DNA from: Heterostelium pallidum | Taxonomy: Eukaryota | Assembly (NCBI RefSeq): GCF_000004825.1 | Contig: NW_008805072.1 | Coordinates: forward strand, 684,435-748,434 | Direction: 5' to 3' | Length of the DNA stretch: 64,000 bases | In this document: positions 3,937-46,095 of the stretch, one piece after another | Layout of the letters: the number at the start of each line of letters is the position of its first letter | Position numbering within the stretch: the stretch's first letter is position 1 | Notes under the pieces: model-generated | What the model was told of the DNA's origin: nothing | The model's input: only the letters and a program-made list of their open reading frames with translations | Databases searched by the model: none | Translations under genes and position numbers: made by a program

Positions 3937-4477
3937 TTATTTCTTGGAGGTCTTTCCCTTCTTTAATCTGTTCTTCTTCTCCTTTCTTTGCTTTCTGGAG
4001 GTTTGTGGTCTGGTGTAAAGTCCAACCTATAGTTTATTAATAGTAGGTAGTAAGGAGATAATGATTAGTATGGAAACAATAACTAAAATCTTTTGTTCTG
4101 TATTGAAACTTACTCTGGCAAGACGGTACTTTGGTTCGTACTTCTTGGCGAGTTCCAAGTTATCGTAGATCAAACCAAAACCAGTGGATTTACCACCACC
4201 GAAGTCAGTCTTCATACCAAAGACGTAGATGGTCTTGGCATCAGCGACCTTGTGGATCTTAGCAACAGCAGTGATCAAGTCGTTCTTTGAGACGTTGGCT
4301 TTACCTGGGTGAACAACATCAACAACCTATACATAATAATATGTTGTTTTTGTGTTAACACTAATCTTTAATCTTCTTCTTCTCTGTATCGCTTATACAT
4401 ACGAATTGTTTTCTGCTCAAAAGACGGTTTGACATAACCTTTCTGGTACGAACGACAACAGCTGATTTATCGGCCAT
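3937..4477 (-). CDS. rps24: 40S ribosomal protein S24 (eS24); CDS join(4403..4477,4114..4326,3937..4026)
   Basis: Translation reads [25 protein letters not shown] / [17 protein letters not shown]...[30 protein letters not shown] / [29 protein letters not shown]. It is collinear with human RPS24. Both introns are phase 0 with GTATGT and GTAAGT donors. Confidence 0.93.
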
Positions 4478-4884
4478 ATTTGCTATGTGTGTGATGAAGT
4501 GTAGGGAGAAGATAACAAATATATCAGTCGATTGATCTATACAAAGACAGTTTCACACTCTATACATACATTATAGGGAGGAATCCGGAAAAGGGTGAGT
4601 ACGAGGTATCAGATAAGTTTCTTCACAGTGGTGGTAGTCAGGCAGCTTGCACCACACCTCAGGTACAGTCGATTCTCGTGCCAAAAAAAAAATTAAATTG
4701 AATTTTATTATTTATTTTTCAAAAATTTCATCGTAGTTCGTAATTTACAAGAGTCTCAACAAATTTTGCATTCAATAAAGTCGTTGAATGACTGATTGAT
4801 TAATCATACGAAATTAATAATAATAATAATTTAAATACTACCAATTGTTGTTAATTATAAATATATTATATTAAGAATCAATCA

Positions 4885-5329
4885 ATGGCTATTGGTAATT
4901 CAAAATCAACAATTGACGATGGTGCAGATAAAGCATATCTTAGTATACCAGATTCAGAGGTCGTAGTACCAATTGCAATCGACTCTTTCCTGAGAAAGAA
5001 GTTGAAGGATCAAACATTAATAGATTGCGAAGACTCTGTAAAGGAGTTTGCAAAATGTACAGAAGATAAATTCCTTTCTGTCATTTGGGAATGTAAGGAA
5101 GCTCAACAAAAGATGAAAGATTGTCTACAGGCACAGTAAGTTATTATTAAAGATAAAAACAATGATGAAAGACGAACGTTATCGATCAATACTAATATCA
5201 TTTGTTTAATTTACATGTAAACACAGCACAACACCAGAGAGATTAATGGAATTAAAGAGAGAATGGATCAACCAAAAGAAAAAGATTTTATATGAAAAGA
5301 AAATGAGAGATGAACAACTTAACAAATAA
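4885..5329 (+). CDS. COX assembly mitochondrial protein, CMC1-like twin-Cx9C protein; CDS join(4885..5135,5227..5329)
   Basis: Two CX9C motifs (C-EDSVKEFAK-C and C-KEAQQKMKD-C). The ATG sits in an AAUCAAUGG context. There is a GTAAGT donor at 5136 and an ACACAG acceptor at 5226. The second exon encodes a basic, helical tail ELKREWINQKKKILYEKKMRDEQLNK. Confidence 0.75.
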
Positions 5330-5882
5330 TAATATAATAATAATAATAATAATTAACAACGAAGGATAGATATAGGTATTATTTTATTTGTAAATAAAAC
5401 AATCAAACAAAAAAAAAAAATAAGAAGAACTTGTTCAGTTTTAAATTTTATCATGTTTTTTTACATTTTTATTTGTTTTTTTTAGTTTTTTTCTATCTTG
5501 TTATTTTGTAACATATTTGTTTGATGGAGTGGAACGAGTAGATGTAGATGTAGTTGGATGGATGGAGTGGATTGTTGAATAGTAGTGATCGTCAATAAGA
5601 TCCTTTTATGATTGCAGATCTTATATTTATTATAAGATATAAATAAAAAATAAAAGTAAAAAAAAAAAAAAGATTATATTAAAAAAAAAGTATCCAAGGA
5701 TTATATAAATTACACAGTCAGAACCTATTTCTAATGTTGTTCCTTTGGTAAAATCGAGTTGTAGCTGATTATAATAAAAATAAAAATAAAAAAAATAATA
5801 TTCAGCTTGTACATATATGTAATGTTGGTTGAGTGTTGTATATTCTAGATGTTTGATGTTATTGTTGAGTGACGTAGTGAGT

Positions 5883-7128
5883 TTAATTGATAGCAGGAGT
5901 GCTAACGGTGCTGTTGCTTCCTTTCTTTTCTTTTTCGGCAGGGGGAGCAGTCACTTGTTTTTTGTATGTGGTAAGCACTGGATAAATATTTTCAAATGCT
6001 TCATAGATTTCTTCTCTGACCTAAAATAATAATATTAATATTCTATTTTTCTGTTTCTGTTTTCTTGTAAGTTGTAATTATGATAGTTACCTTTGCACCA
6101 GTCAATACAATCTTGCCCGATACGAAAATCAAAAGTACTACTTTGGGTTGAATCATTTTGTAAATTAAACCTGGGAAAATTTCTGGCTCATACTGTGGTG
6201 GTGTTATGATTTTTGTGATTATTATTATTTTTAAAGAAATGGATGATTATTATTTGGTGTGCATTTTAATAGAATATTATTTTAGTTTAATAAATAACAA
6301 GAGAGTAATGAGAATTATTAAAAGATAAAATAGAAAAATAAAAAATAAATAGTTTTTTGTTAGTTATATTATTATTTAGATTAAAAATATATGGAAATAG
6401 AGAGTGTGATAATTACATTTGTAAAAGAATTGTGAGTATTATTTAACATTTCTAATTTAATTGGGAATTTAACATCACAGGAACCAACGATGTTTTGAAT
6501 CTTAAAGTCGGTAAACTGTGCTGGGAAATCTAGCTTTTGAATGATTCTAGCGTATTTTCTTGCGGCAAGCTTGGAAGCTTCCTCTGACTTGGCACCGGTG
6601 CAGACCATCTTTCCACTCTTGAAAATGAGGGCAGTGGTCTTTGGTTCTCTGATACGCATGATAACCGCTGCAAAACGCTTTGGATTGTACTCTGCATTTC
6701 TAGCACCCAAAGCAATAGTCTTTAGATCCAACTGAGTACCCATATTAACGGTTGACACAATATTCCTACAAACAAAAATAAAAAAAGTAAATAAATAAAT
6801 AAAAAAAAGAAAATTAATTGTAAATATAATAAAATTCTCTCATAACAGAACAATAATTAATTTGATCTTAATTTTACTACACATATATATATATTGTTAT
6901 ATTTTTACAATATATATATTGTTATTATTTTTTTTTTTTTATTATATGATTGTATATTATAGTTTTTTTTTTATTATTTTATATTATTTATTTTATAATG
7001 TATGAATAGTATAGTGTATTGGAATCGATCTCTTACTGTAATACAGGTACAATACCAGAAGGGTGTTTTGATAGATCAACTTGAGTTGATGGTCCAGAAG
7101 ATGTGGAAGCAGCAAGATTTGAACTCAT
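5883..7128 (-). CDS. tbp: TATA-box-binding protein; CDS join(7037..7128,6417..6765,6091..6192,5883..6020)
   Basis: Both TBP direct repeats are present: [62 protein letters not shown] and [19 protein letters not shown]...[50 protein letters not shown]. The introns are 271, 224 and 70 nt, all with canonical GT/AG ends. Confidence 0.9.
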
Positions 7129-8097
7129 GTTTTTATATAATTATTTAGAAAGATTGAAATGAAAGAAAGAGAAGTGTATGATAAAAGGTGAGAATTTAAT
7201 TAAAAGATTTAATATAAATGTGTGTAGTCGACCTCTAAATAATAAATAGAAGTAGTTTTCAATTTTAAATCAAGCAGTAACAAAAAATATAGATATAGAT
7301 AAAATATGTTTTACTATTATTTAACAACTTAATATAGATAATAATAAGATTTTATATTTACAAACAATAACACAACAATAATAACAAGTTGTTTACTCAA
7401 AAGAAAAAAAATAAATAAAAGATCTTTAATTATTTGTTAACAAGTATCTTTGATTAAAAAAAAATTAAAAAATAAAAAAGTAAAAAAAAGAAAGACAGAT
7501 GTCTTTGTTAATTTATTAGTTATATATATTTAAAAATTATGTTCTCTAAAAATAGAATAGAGAAAATAATAGAAAATATATAAAAGAAATAAATAGTGTA
7601 TATAAATTGAATATATTATAGTTTGTTAGGTTAAATAATTAACTAACAACTGGTCGAATAATAGGTAGAGATAACAAAAACTATAGTTATAGTATATGTT
7701 AATGGTAGTTGGATTTTTGGTGAAATGAATTGAAAAAAGGAGAGAGAACGTGCGTGGGTGACCTGTTGAGTATTTATATTTTTGAGAAAAAATAAAAAAT
7801 AATTAAAAAATAAATATTGAAAATCGAAATAAAATTAAAAACAATTGTTTGTTTTTACAACCGTTGATGGTGAAAAAATTAAATATTCAAATTTTTACAA
7901 TTTGGAAGTTCACACCTCAATATCAATACAAATAAGCTTAAAAGAGATCTGTTTAAAGTTGTAGTTATACAATGTCACCTATTTAATGTTATTTTGAATA
8001 AGAATTGTTGTTTTGTTTTTCAAAAGTTGTGTAAATTATTATTATTATTGTCGTCGTTATCATATTGTTTGTATTGAGTTGTTAGTTCTTTCTTGAT

Positions 8098-9024
8098 CTA
8101 CTTCTCCAAGAAGAGTACAAAGTTGGTCAATGAGTTGATTTGATGATTTGCTGATTTAACTTGGTGTTCCTTTGCTTTGGTTGGAACTGGCTTCAATGAT
8201 TCAGAGCTTGTATCTTTTGTCCATCCTTGTGCTTGTGTAACTGTTATTTGTTTATGATGTAAAAAGTTAGATCTTTGTTTCAACTTACATAAACATATTA
8301 TTATTATTATCAGCATACATACAGGTGAGAGTATCCTCTGGTGAAATACCTAAATAGGAGCTACAATCTTTAATAGAGATATTGGTGAATGAATTTGAGA
8401 TCAATTCGAATGTACGATTTTGGAATGTTTCTAAGAAAAATAAAATGTGATTGGTTAGTCATTTGTTTTGTTGGTGGATGATCAGATTCATCGATCGATA
8501 GAATACCTTTAAGTATAGTGATGAGTGGTGTGAGTTCAGAACCATAGTTTAATGAAAGTGATTTATAGATGTGTGGATAGTTCAATTGTGACAGATGTTT
8601 CAAAAGTGACCAAATACTCTTCAAATGTTGATCAGCACCTTTAACTTCTGATGGTATTCTGTGCCATAAAAATCTAGCATTTACACTGTGTTTGATAGTT
8701 GATAGTTGATATTAATATTAGTTATTGAATCTTTAAAATAGAGAGAGAGAGAAAGAGGCAAGAAGTAAAGTAACCACATACATATCATTTTGAATCAAAT
8801 AAGCAATCAAATAAACACCCCAATATTTCTTAAAACTATCTGGTTTATCAAGAGACTGTTATCATTGTTTTTTTATTGTTGGTTAGTATAATTAGATGAA
8901 TCCTAATCACAATCAATTGTTTATATATTAATCATACTTTTAATTCTCTTTCTTGACACCATGATAAAACATTCAAGAAATCTCTTTCATCGATATATTT
9001 TTGAATCTCTGGGAATGATGACAT
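8098..9024 (-). CDS. csn8: COP9 signalosome subunit 8 (CSN8, PCI domain); CDS join(8938..9024,8782..8855,8507..8685,8323..8430,8098..8240)
   Basis: Collinear with human COPS8: LSWCQEREL ~ LLDQCENQEL; YWGVYLIAYLIQNDI-VNARFLWHRIPSEVKGADQHLKSIWS ~ [37 protein letters not shown]; C-terminus QINSLTNFVLFLEK ~ QLARLTDYVAFLEN. The four introns have GTATGA, GTATGT, GTATTC and GTATGT donors and phases are consistent. Confidence 0.8.
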
Positions 9025-9293
9025 TTTCAATTCTCTTTATAAACTATATTAATGATATATATAAATGATAAATAGTTAGATAGATATGATACAAAAATTG
9101 AACTATGATTATTTTTGATTAAAATTTTTTTTTGATTTTATTAAACTTTTTAATTAAAAATTTTTAAGAAAAAAATATAAAAAAAAGTTTTTATTAATTT
9201 TAAAGAAAAAAAAAAGATAAATAAAGGTTTCAAAGTTTAAATATAGATATTAATTTAATAGTACAATTATATTATATATAGTTGAAAAATTGA

Positions 9294-9359
9294 TTAGATA
9301 TCATAATCATCATCACCTTTGCACTTTTCATTTGATTGAGGTTGTTGTTGTGCTTGTGG

Positions 9360-9396
<37 letters not shown>

Positions 9397-10673
9397 GGTT
9401 GATATGGTTGTTGTTGTTGATATGATTGTACTTGTGGTTGCTGTGGCTCTACTTCACCAAACATTAAACGAATCGAAAAATCATTGGGATATTGGTTGTT
9501 CTTGAGATTGGCATTGGAGTCGTCGAGTTGATCTTTGTTCAAGTCCAAACAAAAGTTGTTGATAAACGAGGTGTGGAATGCGAATCTAAAGGTTGGCTTA
9601 TCGAGTAGTGTCGAGATGATCTCGTTCAGGTCGTACACCTTGATGAGAATGTCACCACTCACAATGATGTCACGCGTGTTGACCATGGCAGCGGCATCGC
9701 TGCCATTGTAGGACTTGATGTTTTGCACGTTGCTGTCTCTGTTGGTGAACAACAACACCGGTTGCAATGGCAGATTGACATTGTAGATATCGACGACTGG
9801 CTTCCAACCGGATTGTCTGGGAATTGGCTTCATTATAAGCGAGCGAATCGAAAGTACCTTTGGTTTCTGTGCCAGCGAGATATCCACCTTCATAGTCGAC
9901 AACTGGTTGACATAGTCGACGTATCTCACCTGGCTGGGAACGGTTACACCCTCGCCAGTTGAGGAACGTTGCTGAGCAAACAATCGCAATACTTCGTCCA
10001 ACTTTCCTTCATACATAATAGTCGATACTAAGTATGCACAAATTAAAGTACCAGTTCTACCTCTTCCAGCCTTTTATTGATATGATAGATAGTGTTAGTT
10101 TAATATCGGTTGGGGTATGTATGTTGTTGTTGTTGTTGTGTTACACTTACAGCACAATGAATTGCAACGATGTTTTGTGGATCTTGAGTTAACCATTGAT
10201 GAATGATTTGTACGGAGTACAGAAGAAGACTTAGACTTGGTGAGTGATGATCTAGCCAACCAAGATGGTGAACTCGGTTAGAGAAGTAAGCTGGATCGTA
10301 TGGATGTTCTGTAAGATTGAGAATCAAGTATTTATCGGGATGATATTTATCCAAGAATCTTTTGACATCTGCTCTTGAGTTTCTGAAATTGGATTCGATA
10401 ACATCTGACGATGGATATCCCATTGCTATTATTCAATTGTATTAATTGTTTAGTATTACAAACATTAGCTTGATGCCGATTAAATTAAAAGTTACCTATG
10501 ATTCTATTTGTAATATACGATAGATCTAGATTGAATTCATCATTGACGAATCTATTTTTGTCTTTTGAAACAGCAGTTCTTAGTTTAAGCACGACATTAT
10601 TGACAGACTTTGTCAGACTCTTCTCTAAGAAACTTCCAAACTCTGAGGTTGATTCATTGAAACCTTCAAACAT
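9294..10673 (-). CDS. PTEN-family lipid/protein phosphatase (PTP domain plus C2 domain) with a C-terminal poly-Q tail; CDS join(10496..10673,10151..10425,9294..10070)
   Basis: N-terminal NLDLSYITNRIIA-MGYPS matches the PTEN N-terminal motif. The catalytic P-loop spans the second intron as HCA|AGRGRTG. A TI-loop/C2 region (VTVPSQVRYVDYV...) collinear with PTEN follows. The tail is Q-rich and (CAA)n-encoded. Donors are GTAACT and GTAAGT. Confidence 0.85.
9321..9440. repeat. (TTG)n/(CAA)n microsatellite encoding poly-Q in the PTEN-like gene. Similar arrays are at 58200-58300, 62940-63060 and 14160-14220
   Basis: Uninterrupted gttgttgttgttgttg runs. Confidence 0.9.
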
Positions 10674-11567
10674 TCTGTATTACTATGTTATTATTACTAT
10701 TAAAATTTGATGTATATATATAAAGAGGTGAATCTAATGTTTTGATTTTAATTAATATTTTAATTAACTAACTGGTCTAACGGTTTTTTTTTTTTTAAAA
10801 GATTAATTTTTTTGATATTAAATTCCGACAGTTGAATTAATAACTTTACTTTACTTGAAAAATGATTATTATTTTGTATTATATATTTAGTATTTATACA
10901 AGATGATTAAAGAGTAAAATTGGTTTGTTTGAGTCGTGTTCTACTTTTGGTTATTGCAATGTCAGTCTTTTTAATTATTAAATTAAAAAAAAAAAACACA
11001 GCATTCCCGATTTTCTAGAAATGTTGTGGAGTATTGTTTTTTTTTCAGTGCTATTTGTTTGTTTTGGTCCAAAAATAATACAGACTTTAAATAATTCAGG
11101 TTAATTAATTCTTTGAGATATTTTTATAACTTAAATTAATTTTTATTTCTAAATTGTTTATTAACTAAAAAAAATATTATTTACATTTATTTTTAAAATT
11201 TTTTATCATAGTAAAGAATTTAATAATGATTCTCTCTCATTGTTATAATTTTTTAAATAAATAATTATGTCCAATCCCAATATTGTTTTAATACAATAAA
11301 AAATATAATAAAAGATTGATCTATTTTTTAAAAATACAAAAAAAAAAAAAAAAAAAAAAAAAAGTTTTTTTTGAGAAACCAAAATTGCATTAAAGAAAAA
11401 AAAAATAAGAGAGATAAATAAATAGATAACAAAAGAAAATAGAATAATATTAATAGATCGAATAATTTTATATTATAAAATAAATAGTAAAAGATATATA
11501 TAGAATAATAGTCATATTATTATTTGTTGAGCTATTTTTTTTAATAAATTTTTATATTTTTTCAAAA

Positions 11568-12968
11568 ATGAAAATCAGACTCCATAATTATATCAATAGT
11601 TTAGATTTCAATAGTTATCAAAAAGAATATGAAAGACAAAAGAATGATACAACACCATTCGAAATACCACCAGATGACTTGTTTTCATCGCAATCTCTAA
11701 ATTTAAAAGATAAATTGTCGTCGTCGAAAAGAGACAAACCTCAACTGCAGAGTCAGAGTTCGGCAAAGGATTTGCTATCGATGTCCGGTGCATCGTCGGC
11801 CAATTCATCGTATCCGTCGACACCCAACAGTAAGGAGCGATCTCCTTTCACCACACCCAACCTAAAAAGCAGTAATGCAACGACATCGCCAACTGTCAAT
11901 GGCTTGCCTTGGAATCAAGAGTTGCTTTCGATGCCACTGCAAGCACCTCCACCCGCCAGACGTGGACCTGGTCGTCCAAAGAAAGAGTATCTCGAGCAAC
12001 AACGACTCTATGACGAGCAACAAGCAATGATTGCACACATTAAAGCTAGTCCAATCATGCATGAATCATTGAAAATGTCTATTCCTGCGCTTGCTGCCAT
12101 CTCCTCTGGCTCAAGAGAAGACGGTCAAAGTCAACACTCACCACCTTCAAAGAAACCATCGCCAAGAAAGAAGAAATACGATGACGATGACGATGACGAA
12201 GAGGATGACGACGACGACGATGACGAGGAAGACGATGTCGATGAAGAGAGAGAAGATGGCGAGGACGAAGGTGAATCCGGAAAAGAAGAAGACGACGATA
12301 TCGATGAGGATGGTGAGAGTGGTGACGATAGCGGTGAAGAAGATGGATCAACCAAGCCAACACCGCCAGCAAAGAAAAGAAGAGGTAGACCACCTAGAGT
12401 CTACAGGGTTAAGAGAGTACACCAAGACGGTAGTGAATCGGATTCAGAGGAGGATTCAGAGGAATATGATAACGAGTCGGAGGATGACGATGATTTCGAT
12501 AGTGATGAAGATAAATCAAAGAAATCAAATAACAACAACAATAATAAGAGAAAGCGTGAAATACCAAAGAGTGTTGCGACATCTGTGAATTCGGCGCCAA
12601 AGAGTCAACCACCAATACCGGCAACAGCACCTTCAAAGTCACCTGCAATGACACCGACTCCACCAATCACTACAACTACCACTACAAGAAGAGCGGCAGC
12701 AGCAGCAGCAGCGGCAGCAGCAACAGGTACCACCACACCAGCCGTCACACCACAGAAAGAGACAGCGGTCACCCCAAATAACAAACAACAAAACAACTCA
12801 AAAGAAACACCAAACAAAAAAGAAACAAACAATGAAAAGACAGAAGTAGTTGAAGAAGATTCAACTATGAATTCACCCGATAAACAAGATGTTACTGTAA
12901 TTGAAAAGAGAAAAGTTGGTAGACCACGTAAATATCCAAGACCAAATGAAGAAACACCAACTAAATAA
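11568..12968 (+). CDS. AT-hook motif nuclear protein with long acidic D/E tracts; single exon
   Basis: Three AT-hooks (RRGPGRPKK, KRRGRPPR, KVGRPRKYPRP) and several poly-D/E stretches. AAAAUGA start context and TAA stop. The ORF is continuous with no in-frame splice signals needed. Confidence 0.7.
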   Translation: MKIRLHNYINSLDFNSYQKEYERQKNDTTPFEIPPDDLFSSQSLNLKDKLSSSKRDKPQLQSQSSAKDLLSMSGASSANSSYPSTPNSKERSPFTTPNLKSSNATTSPTVNGLPWNQELLSMPLQAPPPARRGPGRPKKEYLEQQRLYDEQQAMIAHIKASPIMHESLKMSIPALAAISSGSREDGQSQHSPPSKKPSPRKKKYDDDDDDEEDDDDDDDEEDDVDEEREDGEDEGESGKEEDDDIDEDGESGDDSGEEDGSTKPTPPAKKRRGRPPRVYRVKRVHQDGSESDSEEDSEEYDNESEDDDDFDSDEDKSKKSNNNNNNKRKREIPKSVATSVNSAPKSQPPIPATAPSKSPAMTPTPPITTTTTTRRAAAAAAAAAATGTTTPAVTPQKETAVTPNNKQQNNSKETPNKKETNNEKTEVVEEDSTMNSPDKQDVTVIEKRKVGRPRKYPRPNEETPTK

Positions 12969-13837
12969 CTATAATAATAACCATTTAAATTTATAAATCT
13001 AAACTTATTTTGTTTTGTTTTATAATATAAATAAAGAAACATGTATAAATCTAAGACTATAAATATATATATATATATATATACTCAAAAATAATAATAT
13101 ATATTTGGTATTGTTTTATTATGGAATTGGAAATTGAGTATACAATGTTTTAAACATGGTCGATGATAGTTAACTGGTCTTAAAGAAAGAACACTCAATG
13201 ATGTTGATTGAATCATTAACTAACTATGATTGTTATTATAATTATTGTTGTTGTTGTTGTAGGTTGAAAAGATTTATTTGATTTATTCAATCCAACTTGT
13301 TGAAATGGAATCTTGCTTATATATATATAATATAAAATACGAGTTGACTTACATTGATTATTGTCTACAATCTATAAATAGTCTTTACAGTTGAACTTAA
13401 ATCACCAACTACTTTTGTGTTTTGTAACGATTCCTTTGGAGTAAATAAAACATTCTCTTGTCTATCCTTATGATAGGTAAGTGATTTAATTAAATTTCCT
13501 ACTGATATATTGAATGCCAATCTACTAGATTCTAACAACTATTAATAATTTAAAAAAATAAACAATATATTAATTAAAATGCTATAAACTTTATCAAATA
13601 ATAAAAATATAAATAAACTAATACTTACAGAATCAGGACATAGATCACTTAATGTTCCACTATAATCATTATGTTTTGGTTCATTGTTCAAAAGGAAATC
13701 TGTAGACAAACTATTCAAAGTTAAAAATGGTATTTGGATTGTACAATCACTTCGATAGATTGCATGTAGCTATTAAAAATAATCACGGATATATTTGTTG
13801 TTAGTTGATATACTAAATTAATTGCGATAATATTATA

Positions 13838-15936
<2,099 letters not shown>

Positions 15937-18900
15937 CCCCTATCAATTTACTGTCACAACAATCTATCTATCGATCTAATCTATCTATCTATCTAACTAT
16001 TTAGTAGCTTACTAACTAAACCAAACCAAACTAAACTAAACTAATTATTTTTAACTTTTACTTTTTTTTTATTATATTATTATTGTTATTATTATTACTA
16101 TTTATATCTAAATTATCTATCTATCTATCTATGCTATTTAAAAAGAACTATTTATTAAAACAATAAAATTAATAATGATTGATTTATGATTTATGTTTAT
16201 TTTGATTGACTATATAATTATACAAAGTATGATATATTAATATGGTGATTTCTTATGATTGATGATTTATATTTAAATATAATATGATATGCAAATGTAT
16301 GATTATTATAAGAAAAACTGTTTCATTAATATAATCGGGTAATATATCCTTTTTTAAAAATATTTATTAATAAGGTAATGAAAACGATAAAGATTACAAC
16401 GAGACGATGAGGTAATAATTATCAACAAACACGACGATGCAAATTAATTAAGATCTTAATTTGATGATGATGTCGATGTGGATGGTGATGTTCGTTTTCG
16501 TTGTTGTACTATTTCTAAAAGTAACTAAATTAATGAACTATATATTATTATAAGATTTGAAAATAGTGTGGAGTGTGTTTTTCTTTAATTGATTATGATA
16601 ATAGTTATTTTTATTAGCTAATGGTTTTTTTGTTTTTCAATTTAAATTGTAAATTATTTTTCCTTTTTTTTTTTTATCAATTTTTGTGTTTTTTTTTTTT
16701 TGGTTTTGTAATGTTGTTTGTTGGAGGGGCAACCATGCACACAGGTCATAACAAAAATCTAAAAAATAAAAAGAAAACAATTTAATGTGCAATCTAGATT
16801 CTAATCATTCCTACCAATCACAGTCGAGTCGATAGATAGAATCATTAATTTAATAAATGAAACAGTTTATGATTTTCCGACAAATTATAAAGTAAAGATA
16901 TTGACCACCATTTGTTATTGTAGATAGATTATACTTTAAAATTAATTCTAGAACTTACTTTAGTTTTGTAATGTGATTATAATTATGTAATTATATTATA
17001 TTATAGAAGGGTTGAAGCAATTCTCTGTAATTCTTGTTTCTGTTTCAATAAATAAAATGATTTTCTTTCTTCTTTTTTTAGTGAATGAGTTGTTGAAATG
17101 AATGAAAATTTTAAAATTTTCATTTAAAATGATAAAATGATAAAATGATAATATTAAATAAATAAATATTAGTATTATTATTAGTAGATAAAGAAAGATA
17201 AGATATAGTATTCTATTTTCTTTTTCATAAATATAAATATCATCAACCAAAAAGAACAAGTTAAACATTGTTGTTTTATCAATTTTTATGCACCACCAAT
17301 CATATCAACAACAAAAGCACCCTTTACCAACCAACAACTTAATAAAAACTCACCACAACACATTGATTGATTATTTATTAATTGTTGATTTATCAAAGAT
17401 TTATAATGCATAGTTAAAGTGTGTGTGTGAATGTGTGATTGTTAATGTCTATCAGTATAGTCATGCTACTGATATGTTATGTTGATACAATCTATTTATA
17501 TATAATTATAGAATTAAACAATATTGCATTAAAATAGTAATAAATCAAATTATAACTAATCAAATATAATTAATACATATAAATTTCATCAAATAAATGG
17601 AGAGGACAGAAGGTAGAGAGAGAGAGGAATGAGTTTAAAGACAACCCAATAAACAACACACCACTTCAGGACATCAACACGCGTATATATAACACCACCT
17701 TAACACTAAACCACTAAAACACCGTCGTAAAAACACGAAAACACACTCACACACTTAGACAGACATAAACACACAAACCAATTTCAGAATCACCATATAT
17801 ATGATTTTATTTTTGAACATAAGACAAATATGGAATAAACATACCATACCAATATATATATTCCATTTTGATCATCATCTTCATTTCTTGAAGTTAATAT
17901 TAACATTCATATGAATGTTAATATAGAATATGTTGTTGATCACACACAGTTATTGTCATCAATTAAAACAAGCAACATAAAAATTTAATTTTATCTGTTG
18001 GTTTATACAACAATACAAAATCCGATTGATCTAAATAAATCGTATCCATACAACAAAATGGGAACATTCAATCACTCAATCAAAGAATTGAATACAATCC
18101 CATTGATCAACGTAATCTTTGTTTTAAAATTAAAATGTATTTTATTTTATTTTATTTAAAAATTTCAACATAAATAGTATTAGCTTTGATAGTCCGAGAT
18201 TAATATTCTTTTCATTACATTCAAATAATTTAAATATAAAATTTAAGTTTAAATTATCAACCCGATAACCTTTAAAAATTTGTAACACCTCATCATCAAA
18301 ATCCGATGTAGATTCAGATTTTCTTGTTGTTTTTGTTTTTTTGTAAAAACTTTTCCGTTCCTAAAGGCGAAATTAAAAGTTTTAAAGGTTGTTTGCAATT
18401 GGAGGTGTGGTGTTGTTTGTCTTTTTTTTTGTTTTTTCAACAACCTGTTGGACATTGATGTAGGTGTGTCTGTGGTCCAGTTTTCACCAGGCAGCTATCG
18501 ATATTTTCGTTGTAAATTTAGATTAATTTGAATTGTTTGTTGAATACGGAACTAATAATAATTTAGTGTGGGTATTGCAACCAACCTTTGCATTGAAGGA
18601 TCCTTGCTTTGCAAAAAATCAATGAGCTGACACAACATTATATAGAGCCAAAATGGAAATTGTTGTTATTAAAGTATTTAATCAGGCAATTATTAAGCAA
18701 TAACACATCAACATCATACATAAAGTTGGTAGGTTAGCGGTTACTGCAATCATTTGATATCACTATCACCTGCTACAATATTGATATCATTTGCACACGA
18801 TGATCGTCAATAGGCAATAGCATTCTTTGCTCCTACCTACTAAAGTCATTAGGATTTTTTGATTGTGAATGATCCTACTCATCAGACCCTTTCTTTTTTT

Positions 18901-19137
18901 TTTTTTTAACAATATCCTACAACTTAATCAACATCATTTGTACAAATTCAATTCTAATTATTAATAATAATAATTATCACTATATATATATAAAATTTAT
19001 TTATTTATTTATTTGTATATTTTTAAATTTAAATAAAAGATTCGGATTGATTAAGAGAAAAGTAATATTCTTTTCATTGTTGAATAACAACAAAACTTAC
19101 TCAATCAGATAAAAAAAAAAAAAAAGAAACAAAAAAA
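15937..19137. other. 3.2-kb gene-free AT-rich divergent intergenic region between the kinase and Frizzled-like genes, with CA-rich and GC-rich islands at 17570-17790 and 18590-18890
   Basis: No ORF has codon-like composition. The islands are strand-asymmetric C+A-rich (ggagaggacagaaggtagagagagagagg...cacacttagacagacataaacacacaaacc) against an ~85% A+T background. Confidence 0.5.
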
Positions 19138-21313
19138 ATGTATTGTAGTCATCTAAACTTATTTATTAAACTTTCACTTTTGTTGGTGTTGTCACTTTTG
19201 ACTACATCTACAAACTCACAACAATTTTTTTATACACTTGACCCTAATGCTACCTGTGAGCCTTGGGTTGGACACTCTTTTTGTACTGGATTAATTAAAA
19301 ATCCAAGTAAGTATCTTTTATTCACATCAATGTATACATTCCATTTATCTAATAGAAAATAGGTTCTATATATGTTTCAACCAGTAGATCACAAAGTGTT
19401 ATGGTTTCTCAAATCGATTTGATTCAGAGCTATTATAATGCTGCCACTTCACAATGTTTGGCTGATGACAGCAACAATCGAAAGTTTTTTTGTAATGCTG
19501 TCTTTCCAGAGTGTAAACCTCAAGGCTTGCCCAATAACAAAGTTATAAATCTAGGTGTTGGTGTTTGCCAGGCCAACTGTAAGCATGTCTCTGACTTGTG
19601 TATACCAGCTGGTCTTAATTTAGATGAGATAAATTGTGATCTAGTAAACTCCCAGAATATCTATAACTATCCACCCAACTACAATCAATATGATCTCAGT
19701 TCATACGGTGGACCGGCCAATGTTCAAGTGCAATGCTTGAATTCCTCCTCGACCGCACAGAATGGAACATTAGCACCTATCAATGGAACATGTCCCGATC
19801 CTTTGATTCATCATGTTACTAAAGACCGACAATCAGATCTCGATAAGGGATACTATCTTTTGGAGGGAATCGATTGTCTGATGCCATGTCCAGCGCCATT
19901 CTTTACACATAGTCAATGGAGTAACATGAGATTAATGATTAGTATTGTTTCACCTGTATGTCTGCTAATTTTAAAATTAATACTTTTAATTATAGTAGTT
20001 CTTACCAACTTTTTTCTTTTAGATATCATTTTTCTGCATTTCAATGAATTTAATAACTTATGTTGGATTGAATAGAAAATTTGATAGGCATGCATTTGGA
20101 ATTATATTTCTTTCATTCTCAGTGTTCTTGATGACTTTGTCAGATTTGATATTTATTGCAGGTGGATGGGATTCTATTTGTCCAGACCCAGGAAGATTTG
20201 CTCGTCAATCTGACAGTAGTTGTGCTGCTGCCGGTTTTATTTTTCAATATGGTGTTGTATCTGCAATGCTTTGGTGGGCATCAATGGCATTTGATTTATG
20301 GTTAGTCATCAGAAAAGGTAGGTAAAAAGAAACAATAATAATTAACAAAAATTTTACTAAAATAATTTCTATTCTTCAAGTTCAAAATGTTAAATCTTAT
20401 GTTAGATATTATATTAGTACTATCAATGTAATTGCAATCGTTTTGGCAATTGTACCTATTTTCGGTAAACAATATGGTTATGCTGTTGGTGGATTAGGTT
20501 GTTGGGTAATGGATGATGCTTGGCAGAATGGTGTATTTTGGATTCCTTTGTGTGTCTGTCTGTTTGTCGGTATTTCATTTATCTTTTTAATCTGTTTTGA
20601 AATCTATAAGGTAATTAATGATCATTAAGAATTAACAGGTGTAAATACATTTTATTAATATTAATTTGAACTTGCTTTTATTATTTATTTTCTACTGATA
20701 GATTGTAACAGCAGTCTCAAAAATCAATGGCAGAAGTAGTAAAATGAGAATTCTGAGAATGAATATAAAACCATTTATCATAGTATTGTTTATATTCTCT
20801 CAGTTTATGTATTGTTTCATTTACCATTTCTATGTTCAAGATAATATGGATCGTTACTATAATAACATGGCAGACTATGTGAAGTGTCTTGTTTCTACCA
20901 AAGGTGATCCAGCGTGTGCATCTCATGCCATTACAGTTCCATACAAGAGTCAAATAACATTCCTCTTCTTCCTACGTATCTTTGGTATTGAAATTCTTTT
21001 TTTCTATGGATTCACCAAGCGTACCAAAAAGATATGGTTACTGTCACCCGTCTTTAAGAACAGATTTGTCGAACTCATTAAGAAATGGGCACCTTCATTC
21101 TTCAGTGTCAGCTCAATCACCACCAATAACTCGAATCTCAACACAACCACCGATGGAGTCACTCAGCAAAATACTGTAGCCAACAGCTCCATTCAACTAT
21201 CAGTGTCTGGATCAATGAGAACCAGTCAAATTTCAATGGTAACTTTAAATAGTAACATTGCAAACGACGAAGAGGAAGATAGAGAGAATAGCGATGAAGA
21301 TGAAGATGATTAA
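19138..21313 (+). CDS. Frizzled/Smoothened-like 7TM receptor with an N-terminal Cys-rich (Frizzled-type) domain; CDS join(19138..19306,19363..19955,20023..20317,20381..20610,20702..21313)
   Basis: Signal peptide MYCSHLNLFIKLSLLLVLSLLTTS. The ectodomain is a 10+ Cys CRD-like region. Seven TM segments align to FZD TM1-7, for example AAAGFIFQYGVVSAMLWWASMAFDLWLVIRK. A juxtamembrane KTxxxW motif (FTKRTKKIWLL) follows TM7. Introns are 56-91 nt with GTAAGT, GTATGT, GTAGGT and GTAATT donors; phases were checked. Confidence 0.8.
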
Positions 21314-44316: not shown

Positions 44317-46095
44317 ATGAAATTATCACAAATTAATTGTACAGTTCATACTGATGAACCATTTATTTTATTTTGTAAAAAATGTAATACTTTGGTTTGT
44401 TCAGAGTGTATGTGTAGTACTCATCAACAACACACCACAATCTCTATAAAAACACATTTACAAGAGAGAAAAGAATCTATCGATACCACAACAAAGAAGC
44501 TAGCGGTATTCGATAATCTAAAGTGGTTCGCTGAGCAACATGCTCATGTCACTGAGAATGAATCGAAATCACTGTTGATTTTCGATGAACTCACCAAGTT
44601 GATCAATAACTACAAGTTCAAATACGAAACCAATATCAAAAGACAAAAGAATCTCCTCGAAGACTACGCCAAAGTCCAATACTCCTACTTGGAGCAACTG
44701 AATCAAGTTTCACTGTCTGCCACCACCAACGAAGTCAATTCAGAAACAGCTAAAGTGTCCATCGGTGACATCCACACTCTATCGAAATCGTTACAACAGA
44801 ATATTGAAATATCCAAGTTTGTTTTGGATATTAGAAATTCCGCTATGTTGGAGGAGCTTCTCGTTGCCACTGCCATCAAAGGATACAAACCATCGATATC
44901 TCTCACCATCGAACAAATGCTCGCCATTGTCGAGTCAATCGATCCAAGCTCACCACCATTCAGTAAAGCCTACGATGTAAATTGTGAAACCACAGTAGAT
45001 GTATCATCCGATTACATTAGCCAATTCTCCAACTTATTAAAAGAGTCGGTAAAGTTAAAATCCGATAACTTTATTTCTCCACATTCTTCATCTACTTCCA
45101 TTTTATCAGAGGTTTTAGCTCCCGATAGAATCGCCGCTAAACCACTTACTAAACTCTATTGTGTACAAGCAAATAAGATTGTCGGTTCCGGTGCAGGCAA
45201 TCCAAGATCAATAGCAGTTATAGACCTGGAGGTGAACAAGATCAATATGGAATGGGCATTTTTCAGTCGCTCCAAAGCCTATAGCTCTGCTCCTATCCTT
45301 TTGAATAACAAGTTCTATACGCTAGGCGGTGATATAATGGAAAAATCTACATTTGAGGTGTATAATATCAATACAAAGTCTTCTACTATCCACAACCTAG
45401 GAAAAGTTGTTGGTTCTAATTTGGCTTGTGATTCCGATGGTCAACGTCATATCTACATAACCAATTCCGATCGTGGAAAGTACGAAGAGTTCATAAGAGA
45501 TTCCTACGATGATCTTGACAGTAGTTACCACACTGGCCACAAAGTTATCAGTGGAACCGAAGCCGATTTAACCATTGAACGATTAGATGTTGTAACCGGT
45601 GAATTCAAGGTGGTTGGAAATTTAAAGGAGAAATCGGGTCTGATCTATACGCATTTGATTTACTCTGCCAAGTACAATTCACTGATAATCTTCAACAATA
45701 AGAAAATCCACAAACTCGATCTCTCAAAGTCATCGTTGGGCTACCAAAATGTTTCAGTCGAAATTGGTTCAACTTTGGCGATCTACGAAAGTGCCAAGCT
45801 TAGTTTAGTCTACGATGGAGACGATAAGATCTATTTCAATTCGATTGGAGATCGTAATTTCTGTGTTCTCAATATCAGTGATAACAGTCTCACCGCACTA
45901 CCACAGCACTCCGAGGCAATTCGAGCACTTGCCTACGATAAGTACACCAACCAGATTATCATAGCGATATCCTATAGACAACCACACAAGCTTGGATACT
46001 ACAACTGCAATACCAACAAGGTAGAAGTATCCAATCGTCAATTAGAAATACCATCAAATATATTCTTTCATTCATTGATTGTAGCTGAAAAATAG
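44317..46095 (+). CDS. B-box zinc finger plus coiled-coil plus C-terminal Kelch/NHL-like beta-propeller protein (TRIM-like, no RING); single exon
   Basis: N-terminal B-box CTVHTDEPFILFCKKCNTLVCSECMCSTHQQH, then about 150 aa of heptad-rich sequence. The C-terminal half has repeated hydrophobic-blade motifs (FYTLGGD, IYITNSD, LIIFNN, KIYFNSIGD). Confidence 0.75.
   Translation: MKLSQINCTVHTDEPFILFCKKCNTLVCSECMCSTHQQHTTISIKTHLQERKESIDTTTKKLAVFDNLKWFAEQHAHVTENESKSLLIFDELTKLINNYKFKYETNIKRQKNLLEDYAKVQYSYLEQLNQVSLSATTNEVNSETAKVSIGDIHTLSKSLQQNIEISKFVLDIRNSAMLEELLVATAIKGYKPSISLTIEQMLAIVESIDPSSPPFSKAYDVNCETTVDVSSDYISQFSNLLKESVKLKSDNFISPHSSSTSILSEVLAPDRIAAKPLTKLYCVQANKIVGSGAGNPRSIAVIDLEVNKINMEWAFFSRSKAYSSAPILLNNKFYTLGGDIMEKSTFEVYNINTKSSTIHNLGKVVGSNLACDSDGQRHIYITNSDRGKYEEFIRDSYDDLDSSYHTGHKVISGTEADLTIERLDVVTGEFKVVGNLKEKSGLIYTHLIYSAKYNSLIIFNNKKIHKLDLSKSSLGYQNVSVEIGSTLAIYESAKLSLVYDGDDKIYFNSIGDRNFCVLNISDNSLTALPQHSEAIRALAYDKYTNQIIIAISYRQPHKLGYYNCNTNKVEVSNRQLEIPSNIFFHSLIVAEK

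Follow-up and report, generated by a model that had tools for sequence, protein, structure and literature searches.

Dictyostelids are a reference system for polarity signalling by phosphatidylinositol 3,4,5-trisphosphate (PIP3) and PTEN, and the fact that cells without PTEN still degrade PIP3 led to the discovery of two further members of the family, Lpten and CnrN. Both are reported to lower PIP3 (PMC11317092, PMC3595242, PMC4172592), Lpten being a 114 kDa protein with five LIM domains (PMC4172592). In PTEN itself the basic character of the catalytic pocket is given by H93, K125 and K128, positions that are intolerant to mutation when PIP3 activity is considered (10.1101/255265), and of these K125 and K128 coordinate PIP3, their mutation or acetylation lowering the activity (PMC8169795). 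We have analysed a PTEN-like gene in a 64,000-nucleotide stretch of DNA listed under Heterostelium pallidum (contig NW_008805072.1, positions 684,435 to 748,434 of the forward strand; hereafter the window, in whose own numbering nucleotide positions are given), in which a 592-aa open reading frame at 44317-46092 is identical to the Heterostelium album PN500 protein EFA77702.1, which identifies the DNA as that of H. album PN500. The gene encodes a real, intact and previously uncharacterised PTEN-family protein with a naturally variant P-loop, HCAAGRGRTG, and belongs to a separate clade of dictyostelid proteins, designated clade B below. From its residues, we lean on balance towards an active cysteine phosphatase that would act on 3-phosphoinositides and would not be tuned for PIP3.

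Gene structure, fold and active site

Reading of the reverse complement of positions 9280-10700 gives a minus-strand gene with three exons (10673-10496, 10425-10151 and 10070-9294) and a 409-aa product, open through 409 codons with no frameshift or internal stop. Its parts are the following.

10496-10673, minus strand: exon 1, with the ATG at 10673; residues 1-59 plus one nucleotide
10426-10495, minus strand: intron 1, 70 nt, GTAACT...AATAG, phase 1, splitting RII/AMG
10151-10425, minus strand: exon 2, residues 60-151; WPD-type loop LDHHSP (D118, H119) and the P-loop half H149-C150-A151
10071-10150, minus strand: intron 2, 80 nt, GTAAGT...AAAAG, phase 0, within the P-loop
9294-10070, minus strand: exon 3, residues 152-409 plus the stop codon at 9294-9296; AGRGRTG, TI loop GVTVPSQ, C2 domain and Q-rich tail
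9456-9866, minus strand: PTEN-type C2 domain, residues 220-356; Pfam PF10409 (PTEN_C2), E 2.6e-23, 82.6 bits against a cut-off of 27.1
9297-9452, minus strand: Q/P-rich low-complexity C-terminal tail, residues 358-409, ending in the acidic GDDDYDI

Exon 1 codes for an N-terminal helix specific to clade B and for the beginning of the phosphatase domain (SKDKNRF...NLDLSYITNRII), and the N-terminus of the product can be aligned with that of the A. subglobosum orthologue (P0001). Exon 2 ends in AIHCA, the last three codons being CAT-TGT-GCT at 10159-10151 (H149-C150-A151), and exon 3 opens with GCT GGA AGA GGT AGA ACT GGT at 10070-10050, which reads AGRGRTG; joined across intron 2, they form the P-loop HCA/AGRGRTG at residues 149-158. 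The intron-split loop proposed in an initial annotation of this DNA, made from the letters alone, is thus borne out, the intron being a regular phase-0 GT..AG one, whose retention would cut the protein off directly after HCA. This same intron holds at 10122-10139 six perfect copies of a trinucleotide (ACA/CAA as read on the coding strand), and the poly-Q tract encoded 700 nt further downstream belongs to this repeat family as well.

The two-domain architecture was analysed at the levels of sequence and predicted structure. Besides the C2 domain, Pfam matches the spliced product to DSPc and Y_phosphatase, and no LIM-domain, ion-transport or transmembrane match was found in the 409-aa protein by Pfam. 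Among proteins of known structure in the PDB, the best sequence matches are TPTE2 and the voltage-sensing phosphatases (VSPs; E 1.4e-44), with Ci-VSP and PTEN at about 1e-40 and auxilin after them. An AlphaFold2 model built from a 60-sequence alignment (pLDDT, the per-residue confidence, 86.7; pTM, the predicted global fold score, 0.81) superposes in Foldseek with 1d5r, 7jvx and 3v0h over both domains, along about 330 columns and with target-normalised TM scores of 0.85-0.88 (PTEN 0.87-0.88; Ci-VSP 0.85, E 4.5e-28), and auxilin is again among the structural matches. The model is confident over the C2 domain, which packs against the phosphatase domain as in PTEN and VSP; together with the Pfam match, the superposition bears out the conserved C2 domain of the initial annotation. 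An additional helix is modelled at residues 5-35, before the phosphatase domain. The window protein therefore has the same catalytic module as TPTE2/TPIP and VSPs such as Ci-VSP and Dr-VSP, but it lacks their voltage-sensor domain and any transmembrane segment, its N-terminus being a single soluble helix in the model, and it has Ala152 in the P-loop where the VSP loop HCKGGKGRTG has Gly. In respect to Lpten and CnrN, the likeness is that of additional social-amoeba members of the family with a phosphatase and a PTEN-type C2 domain; unlike Lpten, the window protein has 409 residues and no LIM domain. Human PTEN has a basic CBR3 loop in its C2 domain; the lack of this loop here was considered as a sign of another membrane preference, an idea that was dropped because the dictyostelid canonical PTENs also have no net-basic loop there.

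The C-terminal tail contains a (CAA)n tract at 9341-9419 (period 3, 26 copies) and is disordered in the model from residue 367 to 409, with pLDDT below 50 at residues 367-380 and 385-409. The tract seen in the initial annotation is thus real, but it is not unusual as had been stated there, since Q/P-rich tails are also found in the D. cf. discoideum, D. firmibasis, D. purpureum and Cavenderia orthologues; indeed, poly-Q-type tracts are frequent in dictyostelid proteins. Past the Q-rich tail, an acidic/hydrophobic motif closes several clade-B proteins (GDDDYDI in the window, at 9297-9320, and DSDYSIL, DNGYDTL and EQDDDL in orthologues P0001, P0002 and P0012), which might be a sorting or interaction signal.

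Alignment with human PTEN shows which residues of the active site are kept and which are changed. The kept ones are D92 (D118 in the window protein), H93 (H119), C124 (C150), A126 (A152), G129 (G155), R130 (R156), T167 (T194) and Q171 (Q198), and the changed ones are N94 (H120), K125 (A151), K128 (R154), I168 (V195), R14 (N40) and K163/K164 (G190/E191). The replacement of the first P-loop lysine by Ala and of the second by Arg is thus confirmed as K125->A and K128->R, and the catalytic Cys and Arg are present, as are the Asp of the WPD loop and the Thr and Gln of the TI loop; indeed, the columns of the HCxxGxxR (Cys-X5-Arg) motif are invariant throughout the 60-sequence alignment. Compared with canonical PTEN (human P60484, D. 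discoideum PTEN/ptenA Q8T9S7 and H. album EFA82559), the likeness extends to both domains, to HCxxGxxR with Ala at position 126, to the WPD Asp/His, the TI-loop Thr/Gln and D24, and in part to the N-terminal basic motif, with an identity over the phosphatase domain of 40% to human and 36% to D. discoideum PTEN. The differences are that the window protein falls in a separate clade, has an N-terminal helix of about 30 extra residues, carries a tail rich in Q and P in place of the phospho-regulated tail of PTEN and of the long internal C2 loop of dictyostelid PTENs, and has no counterpart of Cys71, the window protein and all clade-B members reading NLT-E where PTEN reads NLC(A/S)E. Cys71 pairs with C124 in a regulatory disulfide of PTEN, and as this partner is missing, redox control must differ from that of PTEN.

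Clade B among the dictyostelid PTEN-family proteins

Three sets of short dictyostelid PTEN-family proteins were recovered. The canonical PTEN set comprises D. discoideum Q8T9S7 (P0334), H. album P0289 (EFA82559), two A. subglobosum copies and others, all with the loop HCKAGKGRTG; as the initial annotation had stated for canonical PTEN, Dictyostelium included, K125 and K128 are found in Q8T9S7 and in all nine dictyostelid PTENs retrieved. Two canonical PTEN genes occur in A. subglobosum (P0246 and P0247), and one in each other sampled dictyostelid. Clade B, the group of the window protein, comprises proteins from A. subglobosum, Synstelium polycarpum, Polysphondylium violaceum, T. lacteum, D. 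purpureum, D. firmibasis and D. cf. discoideum and a Cavenderia fragment, all annotated as hypothetical, and it thus spans Dictyostelia; the D. discoideum group is represented in it by D. cf. discoideum. The third set, the Q54CH3 group or clade C (D. discoideum XP_629443, H. album EFA76878), resembles clade B in being a short uncharacterised paralogue across Dictyostelia that also lacks Cys71, but it keeps HCKAGKGRTG and is only 30-35% identical to the window protein.

In a neighbour-joining tree (305 columns, 100 bootstraps) clade B, the dictyostelid PTEN clade and clade C are each recovered with 100% bootstrap. The dictyostelid PTENs group with Physarum PTEN (99%) and then with metazoan and fungal PTENs, whereas clade B lies outside, among unnamed environmental and transcriptome sequences with HCxAGRGRTG loops. 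Since H. album has a separate canonical PTEN, P0289, with HCKAGKGRTG, the window gene is a true PTEN paralogue and not the PTEN orthologue of the species, in agreement with the initial annotation.

The ten clade-B sequences (nine retrieved orthologues and the window protein) have D92, H123, C124, G127, G129, R130 and Q171 invariant, although the orthologues are overall only 47-65% identical to the window protein. A distinct scenario is found at the basic positions of the pocket, which drift between A, K and L at position 125, between R, K and L at 128 and between H and N at 93, as in the following loops.

T. lacteum: HCKAGRGRTG, position 93 H
H. album and A. subglobosum: HCAAGRGRTG, position 93 H
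P. violaceum: HCAAGRGRTG, position 93 N
Synstelium polycarpum: HCAAGRGRSG, position 93 H
D. purpureum: HCLAGKGRTG, position 93 N
D. firmibasis: HCLAGLGRTG, position 93 N
D. cf. discoideum: HCLAGLGRSG, position 93 N

Among the 315 P-loops present in 346 fetched homologues, Lys is found at position 125 in 258, Leu in 31, Met in 12 and Ala in 5, the five with Ala all being dictyostelid clade-B orthologues, to which the window gene adds; Arg is found at position 128 in 44. The substitutions are thus real, but K128->R occurs well beyond this gene, being standard in the wider HCxAGRGRTG set. As A, K and L all occur at position 125 within clade B, and Ala only there, K125->A looks like relaxed constraint at this site rather than a precise redesign.

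The initial annotation had also considered that the variant loop could be the standard sequence of an already characterised PTEN-like subfamily. It is indeed a subfamily standard, but in our literature search we found no sign of clade B having been characterised, nor a survey of dictyostelid PTEN paralogues or a paper naming both cnrN and lpten, and the subfamily is not PTEN, Lpten or CnrN. The separation from CnrN is indirect, as it comes from the sequences of cnrN primers and not from the CnrN protein sequence: neither of the cnrN primers for reverse-transcription PCR in PMC11317092 was found, with up to 3 mismatches, in the 17.5-kb D. cf. discoideum clade-B locus (L002), where the PTEN-like gene has nmt as a neighbour, and the peptide TGLEASWR, encoded by the forward one, was not found in the 345 proteins fetched to that point. 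The pten primers from that paper, used as a control, do find their target in a D. citrinum PTEN locus (2 and 0 mismatches).

The closest protein match of the window product is the A. subglobosum protein P0001, with 62-70% identity and the same HCAAGRGRTG loop. For the 333 codons aligned with it, the estimates are 0.23 for dN and, close to saturation, about 1.9 for dS, so that dN/dS is about 0.12 or lower. In addition, the T. lacteum orthologue was found on a 1296-nt contig from run ERR3252990 in which the genomic intron is absent, and which therefore indicates a spliced transcript in a relative. The gene is intact and under selection, and the pseudogene that the initial annotation had named as a possible outcome is not what we found.

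Both introns lie at identical codon positions in the A. subglobosum orthologue. Across the clade-B loci compared (L001-L004), the D. cf. discoideum gene is intronless, that of T. lacteum carries a single intron ahead of FHTSF, and that of D. purpureum is interrupted twice, ahead of PSQ and ahead of AFHTSF, neither being a site used in the window gene; the pattern is one of rapid intron turnover within one gene. The P-loop intron was therefore rejected as a family marker, as it is common only to the window gene and A. subglobosum.

Proposed function and rival explanations

The function that we favour is a Cys-dependent removal of the D3 phosphate from phosphoinositides at the membrane, which would follow the PTEN mechanism via a phospho-cysteine intermediate at C150. 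For this, the nucleophile C150, together with R156, the general acid D118, H149, Q198, T194 and A152, are all in place, and because nucleophile, Arg, general acid and a PTEN-type TI loop are retained, a working cysteine phosphatase is predicted. At position 126, Gly accompanies 5-phosphatase activity in VSPs; as the window protein has here the PTEN-type Ala and not the VSP-type Gly, a D3-phosphoinositide phosphatase is to be expected. Pocket and membrane face, in turn, are less positive than in PTEN, through K125->A, R14->N and K163/K164->G/E. Given this loss of pocket charge, and given that H93, K125 and K128 are free to vary across clade B, PIP3 is unlikely to be the optimised substrate, and the altered substrate preference suggested in the initial annotation is reasonable. 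The likeliest target would be a less charged 3-phosphoinositide, namely phosphatidylinositol 3-phosphate (PI3P) or the 3,4- or 3,5-bisphosphates PI(3,4)P2 and PI(3,5)P2, possibly on endomembranes, and the N-terminal helix with its roughly 30 extra residues may serve membrane binding or regulation. Three basic positions drift while the catalytic residues are fixed, so that an active enzyme which is not selected for PIP3 would be the simplest account.

Several points weigh against it. The substrate is inferred from substitutions by analogy with human PTEN; in H. album a single pocket charge is lost, since R154 keeps that of K128 and H119 is retained; a residue other than Lys at position 125 is fairly common (57 of the 315 P-loops), and some of the homologues that have it may act on PIP3 still. 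The deep branches of the neighbour-joining tree, from which the origin of clade B would have to be read, are weak (bootstrap 1-48), and the AX4 orthologue may have been studied under another name.

A broader proposal, which we make tentatively and with less confidence than that for the enzyme itself, is that clade B across Dictyostelia, and possibly across Amoebozoa, could be a lipid phosphatase that has moved past PIP3 specificity and controls another 3-phosphoinositide pool under different regulation, lacking the Cys71 disulfide and having the N-terminal helix. Such a pool could be PI3P or PI(3,5)P2 on macropinosomes, phagosomes or the contractile vacuole. A precedent for such divergence, which speaks for the favoured function as well, exists in the plant PTEN2 subfamily, which is reported to prefer PI3P and to act on vacuolar membranes (10.1101/2022.01.18.476728). 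The likeness is one of functional analogy only, that of a lineage-specific diverged PTEN subfamily at vacuolar rather than plasma membranes; plant PTEN2 has a plant-specific, unrelated origin and another N-terminal extension.

Of the rival explanations, the one that survives best is that the protein is a redundant PIP3 3-phosphatase, a back-up PTEN in the manner of Lpten and CnrN, in which the P-loop changes would be neutral. The catalytic core, the A126-type P-loop and the TI loop are all PTEN-like, R154 and H119 speak for it as well, the orthologues are automatically named PIP3 3-phosphatases in UniRef, and D. discoideum does have other PTEN homologues that degrade PIP3 (PMC4172592; PMC11317092). 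K125, however, is reported not to tolerate mutation in the assay of human PTEN on PIP3 (10.1101/255265), and the joint loss of H93, K125 and K128 in D. cf. discoideum and D. firmibasis, which have N, L and L there, is hard to square with selection for PIP3 binding. We thus regard this explanation as possible, though rather doubtful.

Alternatively, the protein might act mainly as a dual-specificity protein phosphatase or on another non-lipid substrate, the C2 domain serving for localisation only. A less positive pocket and the Pfam matches to DSPc and Y_phosphatase would fit this, and PTEN itself has protein phosphatase activity. Yet G129, whose enlargement abolishes the lipid activity of PTEN, is kept, and so are the PTEN-type TI loop, which widens the pocket for inositol head groups, and a complete C2 domain of the PTEN type, in the packing seen in PTEN and VSP, which makes this explanation unlikely.

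Less probable still is an inactive pseudophosphatase or lipid-binding scaffold such as tensin, auxilin or human TPTE. Inactive members have arisen more than once in the PTEN family, auxilin is among the structural matches and the PTEN-specific basic residues drift in clade B; however, inactive relatives with the PTEN fold typically lose the catalytic Cys, Arg or Asp, whereas these residues, His123 and Gln171 are invariant in all ten clade-B sequences in spite of their divergence. Finally, a pseudogene, or a splice forced across an interrupted frame, is hardly credible: the truncation that a retained intron 2 would cause and the lack of a retrieved H. album protein for the locus could be read in this way, but both introns are GT..AG, in the correct phases and common to A. 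subglobosum, and the uninterrupted frame, the low dN/dS and the confident predicted structure speak against it.

Genomic neighbourhood and meaning for the family

Two genes flanking the PTEN-like gene serve as synteny markers and are not part of the phosphatase.

8101-9024, minus strand: CSN8-like gene, downstream neighbour, located in the window with the A. subglobosum CSN8 locus as tblastn query
11568-12968, plus strand: gene for a 466-aa acidic protein, divergent upstream neighbour, a homologue of the gene that occupies the corresponding place in A. subglobosum

The order of genes in the window from 3938 to 21118 is kept in A. subglobosum (L001): a Frizzled-like gene (19216-21118), the acidic gene, the PTEN-like gene, CSN8 and S24e (3938-4477), with a TBP gene (6381-6758) and a Cmc1-like gene (4885-5139) between CSN8 and S24e in H. 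album. As introns and neighbours are common to both species, the window gene and the A. subglobosum gene are orthologous. The 466-aa protein has D/E runs, three GRP AT-hook-like motifs (RGPGRPKK, RRGRPPR and VGRPRKYPRP) and a poly-Ala/Thr stretch and gave no Pfam match, and its A. subglobosum counterpart, a 413-aa gene, is equally unnamed; an exact protein look-up returned nothing for this reading frame or for a neighbouring one of 84 aa.

Some of the related gene models appear to be faulty. The Synstelium polycarpum protein P0003 ends in ...SLKPVPIKPSDGAVRSGNVQIRSLADYVLFLEK, which matches the C-terminus of the downstream CSN8-like gene (window 8098-8316, minus strand), and for this reason it looks like a chimeric model, in which the phosphatase runs on into the neighbouring gene and most of the C2 domain is missing. 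Cavenderia fasciculata DFA_03015 (P0012) begins inside the TI loop and has the C2 half only, and H. album EFA76878 (P0101) has a poly-Asn stretch in place of the WPD-loop region. No H. album protein corresponding to the window gene was found in a heuristic word-indexed protein search that also dropped P0006. As the H. album PTEN and another paralogue surfaced in it and the window protein did not, the gene probably lacks an entry in the PN500 annotation, which would be a small gap in that protein set.

The protein belongs to a known family and is not a new kind of system. It shows that the PTEN family of social amoebae has at least one more conserved enzyme, apparently not studied before, in whose clade the pocket has lost residues that are indispensable to human PTEN for PIP3 hydrolysis. 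Were it just another PIP3 phosphatase, it would be one more redundant paralogue. If the substrate differs, clade B would offer a natural P-loop series (HCK/A/L-AG-R/K/L-GR) with which to dissect the specificity for head groups, and its members would be candidates for the regulation of 3-phosphoinositides on endomembranes; and if PIP3 specificity has indeed been given up, it would represent a natural experiment on how the P-loop chooses its head group, and an overlooked player in the best-studied PIP3 model.

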